Positions 3,186 to 64,000 of a stretch of 64,000 bases of DNA are shown here, piece after piece. Below the pieces are notes generated by a model. The model was not told the DNA's origin, searched no databases, and worked only from the letters and a program-made list of their open reading frames with translations. The stretch spans positions 24,118,001 through 24,182,000 of the forward strand of contig NC_135901.1 of assembly GCF_964194155.1 (NCBI RefSeq). The letters are read 5' to 3'. This DNA comes from Cetorhinus maximus (taxonomy: Eukaryota). Numbering within the stretch: position 1 is the stretch's first letter; every line of letters begins with the position of its first letter. The position numbers were made by a program, and so were the translations under genes.

Positions 3186-3335
3186 CTGCTTCTCATTAGC
3201 TGTAACACAAACCATCCTCTCCAAGCAGATGATGTTCCATCGAGTGATTTGAATGGTACCATTCAGGGATTCCGCATCCAGGGTGAAACCATAGGCTGAC
3301 TGCGTCCTGTGTAAAACCTGACATCTGCACAACCA

Positions 3336-3563
3336 GTAAAATAAAAGCAAAATACTCGGATGCTGAAAATCTGAAATAAAAACAGAAAATGCTGGAAAAA
3401 ACTCAGCAGGTCTGGCAGAATCTGTGTAGAGAGAAAAAAAATAAACGTTTAGAGTCCGTATGATGCTTTGAAGAAGAGTCATATGGATTCAAAACGTTAA
3501 CTCTGCCTCTCTCTCCACAGATGCTGCTAGACCTGCTGAGTTTTTCCAGCATTTTCTGTTTTT
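3336..3563. mobile_element. Fold-back Penelope terminal-repeat mini-element with degenerate hammerhead
   Basis: Inverted arms (ctcagcaggtct / agacctgctgag); TSD atctgcacaacca at 3323-3335 and 3564-3576. Confidence 0.85.
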
Positions 3564-3689
3564 ATCTGCACAACCAAACCTCACTTCTCCTGGACAACAT
3601 TCAGTGTCTGTTGTTTTCCAGATCCCTTTCTTTCCCCTCACTATGACCCTCAGATTGTTCACGGCTTCCTTGTGTGCATCATCCTCCAG

Positions 3690-4325
3690 AAACTGAACGG
3701 GACTAGCCATATAAATACAGTGATGACAAGAGCAGGTCAGAGGCTGGGAACTCTGTGCAGAATAGCCCACCTCCTGTCTCCCCAAAGCCTGTCCATATTC
3801 TACAAGGCACAAGTCAGGAATGTAATGGAATACTCTCCACTTACCTGGATGAGTGCAACTCCAAAAACATTCAAGATTTTCCACACCTTCCAGGACAAAG
3901 CAGCCTGCTTGATTGATAGCCCATTCACCACCTTCAACATTCACTCCGTCCACCACCGATGCACAATGGCAGCAGTGTGTACCGTCTACAAGAGGCACCA
4001 CAGCAACTCACGAAAGCTCCTTTGACAACACCTTCCAAGCCTGTGACTTCTACCACCTAGGACAAGGACAGCAGATGCATGGATATACCACCACCTGGAA
4101 GTTCCCCTCCAAGCCACTCACCATCCTGATTTGGAAATATACCACCGTTCCTTCACTGTCATTTGGTCAAAACCCTGGAACTCCCTCCCTAACAGCACTG
4201 TGGGTGTACCTACACCACACGGACTGCAACAGTTCAATAAGCTGGCTCACCACCACTTCCTCAAGGGCAATTAGGGATGGGTAATAAGTACTTAATGCCC
4301 AAATCCCATTAATGAATAAAAAAAT
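3690..4325 (+). mobile_element. 3' end of a CR1/L2-group LINE (family B, clade uncertain)
   Basis: RAGQRLG, YKAQVRNVMEYSPLTW and SVHHRCTMAAVCTVYK motifs; tail tcaagggcaattagggatggg then A-rich end; same family as 49.2k and 61.5k. Confidence 0.85.
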
Positions 4326-4546
4326 GTCCAATGTCTCCACTTTAAACACTTTCATTGGTCTTACTAACAGATAGCGATGGGATTGCTGCTATCACACGAA
4401 CAAGTTCTGAAAAACTGTCACTCTGACTTTAAGACTTCCTGGAGTAAGATACTGATCCATATCTTCCCACCTAACACCTATCCACATTCCTATCCAAGTT
4501 CCAGGTTTTAAATTGATTATTCAATATATAAAACAAATATAATTTA

Positions 4547-4685
4547 ATTCAGTTCTGAAGAAGTCATATTGGATTCAAAACATTAACTCTGTTTCTTTTT
4601 CCACAGATGCTGCCAGAACTGCTGAGTTTTCCCAGCACTTTGTTTTTATTTCAGATTTCCAGCGTCCTCAGTAATTTGCTTTTAT
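4547..4685 (+). mobile_element. Penelope terminal-repeat fragment with degenerate hammerhead
   Basis: cagttctgaagaagtcatattggattcaaaac...cagatgctgccagaactgctgag. Confidence 0.8.
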
Positions 4686-5064
4686 ATATCTTTTAACCCC
4701 TTTACATCTGATTGTTAATATCTATTAGCACTACAAGAGATTGTCTTTGAGATAAGTTGTTCTGAAAGTCACCTTTCTCCCTAACCTGTCCAAACCCGTC
4801 TTGCCGGTTCATTTATTGAAACCAGGGACTCTCCTTGGTCTAAAGGTGACGTTCCCTCTCTGCCCAGTTATTGCTTTAAGTCAGCCCTTGAATTGGTTGT
4901 GCTTTTATCCTCATGTTACTGCATTTCACTAAAAAATGTTGAAATGTTTGCTCCACACCCACAGGGTTTCATCTGTTAAAAGCCACAAACAGAAATATCC
5001 AAAACAAAAACAGAATTACCTGGAAAAACTCAGCAGGTCTGGCAGCATCAGCGGAGAAGAGCAA

Positions 5065-5103
5065 AGTTGACATTTCGAGTCCTCATGACCCTTCAACAGA
5101 ACT
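5065..5103 (-). ncRNA. Minimal hammerhead-like motif, variant core CUGUUGA
   Basis: AGTT CTGTTGA AGGGTC ATGAG GACTC GAAAT GTC AACT on the minus strand. Confidence 0.55.
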
Positions 5104-61416: not shown

Positions 61417-61424
61417 CTTTAACT

Positions 61425-62930
61425 GGTGACTGCTGAAATGAACTCCATGTGATATCAAGAAAGAGCTAAATACACTGGATACTGCAACGGCTATGGGCCC
61501 AGACAATATTCCAGCAATAGCACTGAAGACTTGTGCTCCAGAACTTTCTGCATCCCCAGCCAAGCTGTTCCAGTACAGCTACAACACTGGCATCCATCTG
61601 GCAATGAGGAAAATTCCCCAGGTATTTCCTGTACACAAAATGCAGGACAAATCGAACCCATACAATTACCACCCCATCAGTCTCCAGCCCCAATAATCTG
61701 GTCATTGTTGCCCAGTTTGGGTTCCGCCAGGGCCACTCAGCTCCTGACCACATTACAGCCTTGGTTCAAACATGGACAAAAGAGCTGAACTCCCGAGGTG
61801 AGGTGAGTGACTGTCCTTGACATCACAGCCGCATTTGACCGAGTGTGGCATCAGGTACCCCTAGTGAAACTGGAGTCAACGGGAATCGGGGAAAACTCTC
61901 TGTTGGTTGGAGTCATACCTAGCACAAAGGAAGTTGGTTGTTGTTGTTGGAGGTCAGTCATCTCAGGACATTACTGCCGGTTGGGCTTCGGACACTACCT
62001 CAGTGGCTAAATCAATGACCTTCCTTCCATCACAAGGTCAGAAATGGGGAGGTTCACTGATGACTGCACAATGTTCAGCACCATTTGCGACTCCTCAGAT
62101 ATTGAAGCAGTCAATGTTCAAATGCAGAAAGACCTGGACAATATCCAAGCTTGACTGACAAGTGGGAAGTAACATTCGCACACACAAGTACCAGGCAATT
62201 ACCATCCCCAACAAGAGAGAATCTAACCATCACCCCTTTACATTCAATGGCATTACCATTGCTGAATCCCCCACTATCAACATCCTGGGGGCTACCATTG
62301 AGCAAGAACTGAACAAGATTAGCCATACAAATACTGTGGCTACAAGAGCAGGTCAGAGGCTAGGAATCCTGTGGCAATAACTCACCTCTTGATTCCATCA
62401 TCTACAAGACACAAGTCAGGACTGTGATGGGATACTCTCCACTTGCCTGAATTAGTACAGCGCCCACAACACTCAAGAAGCTTAACGCCATCCAGGACAA
62501 AGCAGCCCACTGGATTGGAACCCCATCCACAAACATTCACTCCCTCCACCACTGACGCACAGTAGCAGAAGTGTGTATCATCTACAAGATGCATTGCAAG
62601 AACGCACCAAGGCTCCTTAGACAGCACCTTCTAAACCCAAGACCACTACCATCTAAAAGGGCAGGGACAACAGATCCCTAGGAAACACCACCACCTGGAA
62701 CTTCCCATCCAAGCTACTCACCATCCTGACTTGGAAATAGACTGCCGTTCCTTCGCTGTCGCTGGGTCAAAATCCTGGAACTCCCTCCCTAAAAGCATTG
62801 TAGCTACACCACATTGACTGCAGTCGTTCAAGAAGCAGCTTACCTCCACCTTCTCAAAGGCAATTAGGGATGGGCAACAAATGCTGGCCTAGCCAGCGAC
62901 GCCCATATCCCTTGAATGAATTTAAAAAAA
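61425..62930 (+). mobile_element. LINE family B copy (RT to 3' end)
   Basis: GPDNIPAIALKTCAPEL, LDITAAFDRVWHQ, RAGQRLG; tail ggcaattagggatgggcaacaaatgctggcc. Confidence 0.9.
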
Positions 62931-63009
62931 GATTGTGAAACTAACAACCAGAAGGATTTGTGATTCCCTCCTGAGCTGGAAATTCTTAGATAAAACCCCA
63001 CCGTGCAAA

Positions 63010-63325
63010 GATAATTTGAAAGCTGAATGTGGAAAAGGATTTACTCAGTCATCCAACTTACTGACGCAACAGCACATTCACATTTGAGGGAGGAGAATCA
63101 GACACATTGTGTGCAAAGGCATTCACTCAGTTTGCCCCCTGGTTAACACTCCAACTTTAGAAACTCTTTTGATCTACGTCTAGTCCATTCTTATTGGCGA
63201 GGGATAGTTTAACTCTTATGTCTATGGGAAAAAAATCACTTGTTCAGTGATGTGGACTCCAGTGAGTCCACATCTAATTGTAAGGGTTCGTTCTGCTGTT
63301 AATCACACCCAGGACAGAACTATGG
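63010..63325 (+). pseudogene. Highly degenerate ZNF remnant
   Basis: [23 protein letters not shown] piece and ctgctgttaatcacacccaggac 3' block. Confidence 0.55.
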
Positions 63326-63489
63326 TGGAGGGCCTGTGCTCTTTAGTTGTATCAGTTGATTTAGTAAATTTGTAACTTGGACAAATGGCTCCAATTGTAA
63401 TTGGAATTCTGTTCGCAAATCACAATGTTCAATTCAACAATGTCTGATCTCAATGGCCTGGCTCTGACCCAGCATTCACTGCGAGTAGG

Positions 63490-63810
63490 AATGTGCCCTA
63501 TCCTCACGACAGGAGCGCCTTGCGCAGGCGCAGCTCCCGGCTGAGAGTAGAGCATGCGCAGTACAGGCTGTCAGTGGCGCTGCAAGGAACGGGGAAGAAA
63601 CAATCGAGTGCAGTTGAGTAATGGAGTCGGTGGGTGAGCGGGGAGGATTAGAGCCAGCGGAATGGGCGGGGGGCTTTATACCACGTGGTGGCTTGGAACC
63701 CCGAATAAAAAGTTACCGGTCCCGCATTAGCACTGAAAGGTCTATGAGCTGCGAGGCGCCTTCAGCTCACAGGCCCCGTACAGCAGGGCGCATGCGCTGT
63801 GATCCTGGAT
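63490..63810 (+). promoter_or_regulatory. ZNF promoter-like module 7 (gene presumably beyond the window)
   Basis: TGCGCAGGCGCA ~63521, GCATGCGCA ~63552, GGGCGG, GCGCATGCGC ~63788. Confidence 0.6.
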
Positions 63811-63877
63811 CAGGAGACAGGCAGAGTGGGTTGCTAATCTTCCAGGATTGGACTGGAGTCTCCAGGAGCTGAAGATC

Positions 63878-64000
63878 AATAACAAAAACAAAAATACCTG
63901 GATAAACTCAGCAGGTCTGGCAGCATCTGTGGAAGGGAGCACAGTTAACGTTTCGAATCCGCATGACTCTTCAACAGAACTGAGAAAAAATAGAAAAGGG
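63878..64000 (-). mobile_element. Penelope terminal repeat with CUGUUGA hammerhead-like motif (63943-63981)
   Basis: Minus strand AGTT CTGTTGA AGAGTC ATGCG GATTC GAAAC GTT AACT. Confidence 0.85.

Follow-up and report, generated by a model that had tools for sequence, protein, structure and literature searches.

A 64,000-nt stretch of the Cetorhinus maximus genome, here called the window and taken from contig C24 of the 4.0-Gb assembly, carries a series of mostly short, non-coding insertions derived from the terminal repeat (pseudo-long terminal repeat, pLTR) of a Penelope-like element (PLE), together with a longer copy of the element at 5-8 kb. An earlier note on this DNA had drawn attention to ten of these inserts, each with its own direct duplication, and had taken them either for a retrozyme-like non-autonomous family, mobilised by the Penelope reverse transcriptase (RT) and GIY-YIG endonuclease (EN) seen at 5-8 kb, or for products of extreme 5' truncation. 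The analysis reported here points elsewhere: it is probable, at roughly two chances in three, that the inserts are copies of the terminal repeat of an autonomous PLE, flanked by target-site duplications (TSDs) and made in cis by internal priming and by run-off at the 5' end of the RNA. They occur as single arms or as fold-backs, i.e., two arms placed head-to-head, in an old and a young subfamily, and the terminal repeat has two 3' ends, with and without a tail of about 32 nt (hereafter tailed and tailless), a feature absent from the earlier note. Positions in the repeat are given as d, counted in bases from the 3' end of L104, a natural tailed copy that serves as reference; d133 is the A of AGTTCTG, and the predicted self-cleavage site lies near d99. 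Boundaries of the window elements are mostly alignment-defined, three (15531, 27312/28300 and 52380) having been placed by eye. The PLE-derived features of the window are as follows, ORF standing for open reading frame:

3323..3576, both strands: old-subfamily fold-back, minus arm tailed (3343-3463), plus arm tailless (3465-3563); 13-bp TSD
4540..4686, plus strand: old-subfamily single tailed arm starting near the hammerhead 5' edge; TSD not found
4988..8054, both strands: long young-subfamily fold-back, minus arm tailless (4997-6612, about 1.65 kb), plus arm tailed (6623-8040, about 1.42 kb)
6617..7538, plus strand: ORF remnant with the end of the RT, a CX4CxxC linker and the GIY-YIG endonuclease; about 89% amino acid identity to the 925-codon frame of copy L101
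7878..7883, plus strand: TATA-like box TATATT, a putative promoter element 29 nt above the A of AGTTCTG
7907..7945, plus strand: minimal type I hammerhead-like motif, its 5' edge being the stop hotspot described below
8008..8040, plus strand: optional tail of about 32 nt, between both 3' ends
8876..9007, minus strand: single tailless arm starting one base before CUGAUGA; 15-bp TSD
15366..15541, both strands: tailed minus arm with a tailless plus-strand stub of about 19 nt; 10-bp TSD
16354..16473, plus strand: single tailless arm from the 5' edge of the hammerhead, with AAAAT in place of GAAAC through decay; 8-bp TSD
26743..26888, plus strand: tailless single arm of the young subfamily, reaching to 161 nt from the tail end, with a complete motif; 9-bp TSD
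27304..28315, plus strand: short tailless arm from the hammerhead edge (27312), split; 8-bp TSD
33744..33961, both strands: fold-back, minus arm tailed (33766-33899), plus arm tailless (33904-33947); 16-bp TSD with one mismatch
38171..38401, minus strand: single tailed arm of 212 nt, TATAAAT box kept; 9-bp TSD
46427..46850, plus strand: wrap-around mini (ORF start joined to terminal repeat), old subfamily; 17-bp TSD with one mismatch
51259..51454, both strands: fold-back, minus arm tailless (51272-51308), plus arm tailed from the hammerhead edge (51301-51435); 14-bp TSD
61198..61419: old decayed fold-back; TSD not found
63868..64000, minus strand: 3' end of a tailless arm, 1,229 nt long, which runs on past the window edge and is not a short insert; 13-bp TSD by eye

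The ten direct duplications were all recovered at their coordinates, eight exactly and two (33744/33946 and 46427/46834) with one mismatch, and searches from the element boundaries give 11 of the 15 window elements a duplication score of at least 8, versus 3.8% of 210 mismatched flank pairs. The description of the inserts as pieces of terminal repeat of 100-400 bp stands for most of them, but not for 27304/28308, which spans 1 kb, nor fully for 46427, which also holds ORF-start sequence: a piece at 46444-46551 (81% identical to the ORF start in DNA, 67% over 39 amino acids) is joined to the last 286 nt of a tailed terminal repeat (46557-46830). About 880 bp of other sequence (about 27346-28231) interrupts the hammerhead of the short copy at 27304..28315. 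Several inserts had been recognized as fold-backs, and this is indeed true of four of the ten (3323, 15366 with its stub, 33744 and 51259), each of which combines one tailed and one tailless arm. No head-to-tail repeat is present among the window inserts.

The element at 5-8 kb is itself one TSD-flanked fold-back of two truncated arms, which are 92% identical, both 5'-truncated and frameshifted, and which share (4997-8040) a 14-bp TSD with one mismatch (4988/8041). Longer copies lead to a unit of 3.3 kb with a partial tandem and an inverted arm; in L102, for instance, the layout is inverted arm, partial pLTR tandem and body. Another long copy, L101, contains an open frame of 925 codons with RT motifs (YIDD), a CX4CxxC linker (CPRRRCNTC, at residue 791, between RT and EN) and GIY-YIG motifs (YCIRCSQC...YIGET). 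The Pfam RVT_1 profile matches this copy (E=6e-7); the Pfam GIY-YIG profile does not, although the motifs are read in its frame, and the Atlas look-alikes of the frame carry RVT_1, with one also carrying GIY-YIG in 27% of its members. A CX2-5CxxC linker between RT and EN, which is missing in Penelope and Poseidon, defines the Neptune/Nematis type (PMC8557442, available part), and the source is, judging from its predicted protein, an autonomous, endonuclease-bearing PLE of this type. Its main ORF starts about 45 nt past the tail, while in-frame reading from the ATG of the terminal repeat into the ORF meets a stop in all three tandem copies (3/3). Long copies have scattered truncation points and end with or without the tail, as short copies do, and the 82 terminal matches found in an unbiased survey of 764 kb (the window, a neighbour and 13 blocks) fall mainly into the two 3' ends; all-against-all lengths in random blocks were confounded by fold-backs and are excluded from the counts. 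Of note, terminal-repeat matches are denser in the window (21 in 64 kb) than in the 13 random blocks (55 in 650 kb). Exact searches of the whole assembly found 22,995 matches to a 30-mer of the young subfamily and 4,578 to a 33-mer of the old one, and none to controls; the source element is present in tens of thousands of genomic copies.

Insertions were then characterized in two samples: a young one, consisting of the first 100 listed matches of the exact 30-mer (C1, 0-8.8 Mb), i.e., 100 arms in 79 insertions, and an old-subfamily one of 41 among the first listed matches, for which a single reference copy was used, such that some shorter ends are possibly alignment limits. A TSD flanks 52 of the 70 testable young insertions (null 1%; 9 of the 79, being cut off, tandem or incomplete, were left out), namely 35 of 38 fold-backs and 17 of 32 singles; it is mostly 13-15 bp long, with a mode of 14. 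With TSDs so far above chance, the earlier proposal that the inserts arose by independent insertion through the Penelope RT/GIY-YIG machinery gains support. Forty of the 79 young insertions are head-to-head, and 36 of these consist of one tailed and one tailless arm; among the other four, one was scored as tailed twice through chaining overrun (its partner reads tailless), one is tailless twice and two have incomplete partners. The same combination is found in 17 of 20 old-subfamily fold-backs. Both arms have the same subfamily type in all 34 typed pairs (four are untyped), and in all 35 pairs measured they are closer to each other than the median cross-locus distance. Two primings, from nicks about 14 bp apart, fit the fold-back data best and match what is described for the anole element in vitro.

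The 5' ends of the arms are not evenly distributed. The interval d120-138 contains the ends of 34 of the 100 young arms, 5.2 times the rate in flanking intervals (p=4e-10), and this hotspot persists with one arm per insertion (24/79, ratio 5.4) and in partnerless arms (8/39, ratio 5.3, p=0.002); no young arm (0/100) ends at d139-147. Of the 41 old-subfamily matches, 23 have their end in the corresponding interval (ratio 5.7), seven of these exactly at the A. Simple extreme 5' truncation, the second proposal of the earlier note, agrees with the smooth distribution of lengths above about 140 nt, yet not with the 5-fold excess of ends that two subfamilies show at the 5' edge of the hammerhead. 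In 32 of 35 long young arms the A is preceded, 29-30 nt upstream, by a TATA-like box; in the old copies printed, TATAAA(A/T), or this sequence with one letter changed, occupies a position some 30 nt upstream. On these sequence grounds the hotspot is read as run-off at a putative transcription start. An untemplated, cap-derived extra G was looked for by eye at the ends and is not consistently present.

The hotspot coincides with the edge of a motif that matches the published minimal PLE hammerhead, including the extra base before stem II and the palindromic ACGU. At 7907..7945 it comprises stem I (AGUU/AACU), the core CUGUUGA, an extra A, a 5-bp stem II and GAAAC-GUC. Stems I and II pair in 90.6% of cells, versus 15-46% when slid; covariation of the stems does not exceed that of shuffles, with one compensatory pair in stem II, and an Rfam scan of the window returned no hammerhead at E<=1, only chance hairpins. 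Judged by its structure, the pLTR carries a candidate minimal hammerhead. Its core is CUGYYGA in the young subfamily and CUGAAGA in the old one, where stem I is often mismatched. The A at core position 6 matters for hammerhead cleavage; this conserved A has been lost (CUGUUGA, CUGCUGA, CUGCCGA) in the young subfamily, the most numerous recent one (window 7911-7917, L148, L159), which keeps stem II by compensatory change. That most window inserts retain all or part of the motif, as had been stated, holds insofar as five of the ten pass a loose full-motif scan, but the motif is mostly decayed or cut short, and only 26743 has every core letter and both stems (read by eye), with a core of CUGUUGA and not CUGANGA. 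For this copy (26779-26817), the hammerhead fold of the monomer (-5.9 kcal/mol) lies above the minimum (-8.3 kcal/mol) and the double hammerhead is not the lowest-energy form of the dimer, although folding does not tell activity. The canonical type I hammerhead of retrozymes, with a CUGANGA core and loop contacts, was not found, the motif being minimal and without Rfam match, and no window insert has a complete hammerhead in at least two consecutive head-to-tail units. Nor do unit ends or circle junctions lie at the self-cleavage site, near which one of 100 young arms ends (at d99) and none of the 37 wrap junctions described below falls. No insert end or junction appears to depend on hammerhead cleavage; the motif seems to ride along.

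The wrap-around mini at 46427 has many counterparts in the genome. An ORF-start 24-mer has 874 exact matches in the assembly, and the first 70 fetched correspond to 65 loci (five within-locus repeats were dropped). In 37 of these the ORF sequence stops after 65-1,209 nt and is joined back to the terminal repeat, in 24 it continues beyond 1.5 kb and in four it does neither. The junctions of the minis vary by locus, are mostly blunt or have an overlap of 1-7 nt, and have scattered positions; as these lie away from the cleavage site, the junctions are not those of ribozyme-cut circles. Among the 27 scored minis that have an upstream piece, this piece passes the junction without wrapping in one, when 14.8 would be expected from long-bodied copies. 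Within single TSD-flanked insertions (TSDs by eye), the same junction is repeated four times in L275-278, three times in L308 (once in the inverted arm) and twice in L310 and L298; it is present in both arms of L263, L271, L323, L287 and L285. Exact patterns searched in the whole assembly show the junctions of L308, L310 and L275 to be confined to their own locus. A junction found two to four times per insertion, with three such junctions unique genome-wide, suggests that a small RNA, closed or re-entered, was copied repeatedly; the second pass, which stops at the junction in L267 and L314, hints at a linear RNA entered again through its 3' end more than at a sealed circle. A more general rule, whereby inverted arms would stop exactly at wrap junctions, was rejected: it fails for L274, L285 and L287, and only in L267 and L314 does the second pass end there. 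The array L275-L278 (C1:45.24 Mb) consists of 4.3 head-to-tail copies of a 267-bp unit, each with a hammerhead-like motif, and has a possible 8-bp TSD; like L308, it has a retrozyme-like head-to-tail form, with cores CUGCCGA/CUGCUGA. Expansion after insertion could also produce direct arrays of this kind, but it hardly explains L310 or the junctions present in both arms, and the short arrays appear to be born in the insertion event.

Further regularities were seen among the minis. Three independent ones, L267, L295 and L314 (C1:8.11, 132.04 and 246.00 Mb), leave the ORF 954-957 nt past the tail and rejoin the repeat at different points, which may reflect a recurrent RNA 3' end or break; a gapped pattern detected one further locus breaking about 20 nt beyond this exit point. 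The lengths of the ORF-start and terminal-repeat pieces correlate in the 37 minis (rho 0.51; 0.78 in the 31 under 400 nt), as though trimming had shortened the RNA pieces to similar extents on either side of the start sites. With few exceptions, the mini junctions lie upstream of the hammerhead.

Taken together, the insertions would be made as follows. The protein would nick both target strands about 14 bp apart, and from each nick complementary DNA (cDNA) synthesis could be primed on the pLTR-ORF-start region of the RNA, at either of two internal positions, two primings giving a head-to-head fold-back and one priming a single arm. The RNA would start at the A of AG(T/C)TCTG beneath the TATA-like box, and cDNA primed in the upstream repeat would thereby end after 100-135 nt. 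Where the template is a small RNA near that region, circular or re-entered end to end, the enzyme would wrap into the ORF start and might go round again, giving minis and short tandem arrays. A wider proposal, whose chances we consider evenly balanced, is that the RT primes twice near the RNA 5' end, once from each target nick, and goes round small hammerhead/ORF-start RNAs, either true circles or RNAs re-entered end to end, retrozyme-size arrays being born in one insertion without ribozyme cleavage, and that wrapping on the full RNA explains pseudo-LTR tandems class-wide.

Other explanations account for part of the data. The short copies could be a non-autonomous retrozyme-like or short interspersed element-like family, with masters of its own and mobilised in trans, as the earlier note had envisaged; a fixed and frequent 5' end, the very high copy number given by the exact matches, the four-unit hammerhead array L275-278 and one mini junction present at two to three loci are all in keeping with this. 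In a tree of 63 arms covering d120 to d38, one per insertion (22 short; 82 columns, weakly resolved), however, short copies interleave with long ones and form no clade of their own: the label changes 17 times, versus 14.3 for shuffled labels, 482 of 500 shuffles being as low, and identical sequences span length classes. The three subfamily types of the young sample are represented in every length class, short, middle or long (p=0.73); the TATA-like box is missing from copies that start at the hotspot, ends do not fall at the cleavage site, no window insert is head-to-tail, and three of four exact junction patterns are confined to one locus. A separate retrozyme-like lineage of short copies is not supported, and the trans explanation, largely refuted for this sample, retains very little probability. 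Equally improbable as a general account is that fold-backs arise by snap-back self-priming, on cDNA or an antisense template, with short singles as random 5' truncations and minis as later internal deletions. Self-priming has been proposed for rotifer Penelopes (PMC3846280, available part), fold-back arm lengths correlate (rho 0.57), and microhomology of 1-7 nt is frequent at junctions. Of the 36 pairs, however, 10 have the longer arm tailed and 14 the shorter one, while in 12 the arms differ by no more than 5 nt; a tail on the shorter arm was not copied from the other arm, and snap-back of a tailed first strand cannot yield it. A tailless end is normal, too, in single arms with TSDs (21/39), random truncation does not account for the 5-fold hotspot, and a later deletion would not readily give a junction shared by both arms or present in two consecutive copies (L310, L308). 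Snap-back is thus contradicted for most loci, though it may hold for individual ones.

A third explanation keeps the cis origin and differs as to the hotspot, which would be a site of stalling or fall-off at a protein-bound hammerhead, or a processed splice-acceptor end, instead of a transcription start. This we consider unlikely, though less so than the two preceding ones. The hotspot coincides with the 5' strand of stem I, a polypyrimidine tract and an AG lie upstream, and the anole ribozyme is protein-assisted (PMC11167929, available part). A structural stall should, however, place ends at the stem's 3' side, around 95-99 nt, and this interval holds one end in 100; the exact old-subfamily ends (seven at the A, one at the base after AG) retain the AG and have no common upstream exon letters, the upstream edge of the hotspot being sharp. 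Several observations nonetheless weigh against internal priming with run-off at a transcription start. The RNA start is proposed from sequence; assembled contigs, from runs that are RNA by guess, show presence and give no start, end or level. The young box, TATATTT, is a weak TATA, and the stretch above the hotspot is a polypyrimidine tract with AG at its end, as a splice acceptor might be; in Drosophila virilis, an intron ends at helix I (PMC4209133, available part) and the Penelope promoter is TATA-less (PMC2377424, available part). A start at this site predicts some pile-up at 133 in long-bodied copies, which is absent from the upstream repeat pieces of 24 of them (0-1431 nt; near it, only 108 and 144), a point that also speaks for stalling or processing. 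Because the young sample required an exact 30-mer, in the first 8.8 Mb of one chromosome, ends below 88 nt are invisible. As for double priming, three fold-backs of the old sample and one young one have two tailless arms, and the likeness of arms could stem in part from later gene conversion. In L018 (C5:165.40 Mb), head-to-head tailed and tailless arms are only 74% alike and no TSD is seen; it is either two neighbouring insertions or a rare two-template event, and chimeric fold-backs of two subfamilies, which this locus alone suggested, were not retained. Finally, the L322 junction recurs at two loci, plus a one-letter variant, such that small families may exist.

Elsewhere in the window, C2H2 zinc-finger ORFs form a cluster (9966-11522, 18180-18986, 23988-24590, 31692-32945, 42715-43686 and 54118-54984) amid many CR1-like LINE remnants (family names judged from translations), and two older, more distant Penelope endonuclease fragments (17087-17400 and 56741-57112, both on the minus strand) have 40-49% amino acid identity to the L101 frame. 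The window inserts are ordinary, mostly decayed passengers inside this zinc-finger gene cluster.

Known systems show both likenesses and differences; the comparisons concern the parts of the cited sources that were available. L1 elements use twin priming, in which a second nick primes a second cDNA and creates an inversion; L1 twin-primed arms do not overlap, whereas the arms here duplicate the same end. Minus-strand strong-stop DNA of LTR elements is a short cDNA primed near the RNA 5' end that runs off; here, in contrast, there is no transfer RNA primer and the short cDNA would be joined to target DNA from the outset. In Adineta (Pen2a_Av) and other endonuclease-bearing (EN+) PLEs, the insertion unit comprises a partial pLTR tandem, an inverted 5'-truncated copy at the 5' side and a TSD (PMC3846280; PMC8557442). 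These units share with the present element this layout, seen in L102, as well as a tail of 30-40 bp at one end only and heavy 5' truncation; the near-strict tail rule (36/40), the 14-bp TSD mode, the stop hotspot and the wrap-around minis set it apart from these accounts. In vitro, the RT of the Anolis carolinensis element Poseidon starts at two neighbouring internal sites, which define the tail, and both strands are cut and extended; a dimer is predicted, the RNA must include the ORF start, and hammerhead cleavage is dispensable (PMC11167929). Unlike the present element, with its linker and an ORF about 45 nt past the tail, Poseidon has no CX4CxxC linker and its main ORF runs from stem II; fold-backs, run-off and wrap-around copies, all proposed here, are not treated in the available part of that account (PMC11167929).

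Minimal hammerheads of metazoan PLEs have a short helix I, an extra base before stem II, no real helix III and a palindromic ACGU for dimer pairing; most are single, while some form opposite-strand pairs 100-700 bp apart, interpreted as truncated PLEs, and circular templates were proposed for more-than-unit copies (PMC4209133). The young subfamily departs from these published motifs in having U or C at core position 6. Non-LTR retrozymes are small hammerhead-bearing PLE-related repeats (PMC7229834; bioRxiv 10.64898/2026.07.22.740005), and a PLE origin of retrozymes was proposed in the 2026 preprint (bioRxiv 10.64898/2026.07.22.740005). L275-278 (267 bp x 4) and L308 resemble them in size and head-to-tail form; the window inserts do not, being monomeric or paired in inverted orientation, with hammerheads that are minimal and mostly decayed, and belonging to no separate lineage. 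The preprint proposes later local amplification (10.64898/2026.07.22.740005), whereas the arrays here are one-off and seemingly born at insertion. As far as these sources go, inverted truncated copies, a one-sided tail, dispersed single or opposite-strand minimal hammerheads and two internal start sites are already in print; twin priming, run-off copies and wrap-around minis were not found for Penelope in literature listings and partial texts, which does not imply their absence from print.

The main value of these inserts lies in the insertion mechanism that they record, above all in the one-off multi-round minis. They bear on how PLEs insert, on the tandem and inverted repeats with a one-sided tail and on the origin of animal retrozymes. 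The tens of thousands of insertion records in this genome lead to sharp predictions: nicks staggered by about 14 bp, a single start site for each strand, copying that stops at the 5' end of the RNA, and copying that wraps around; should the wrap-around reading be true, Penelope replication would be directly linked to retrozyme-like arrays.

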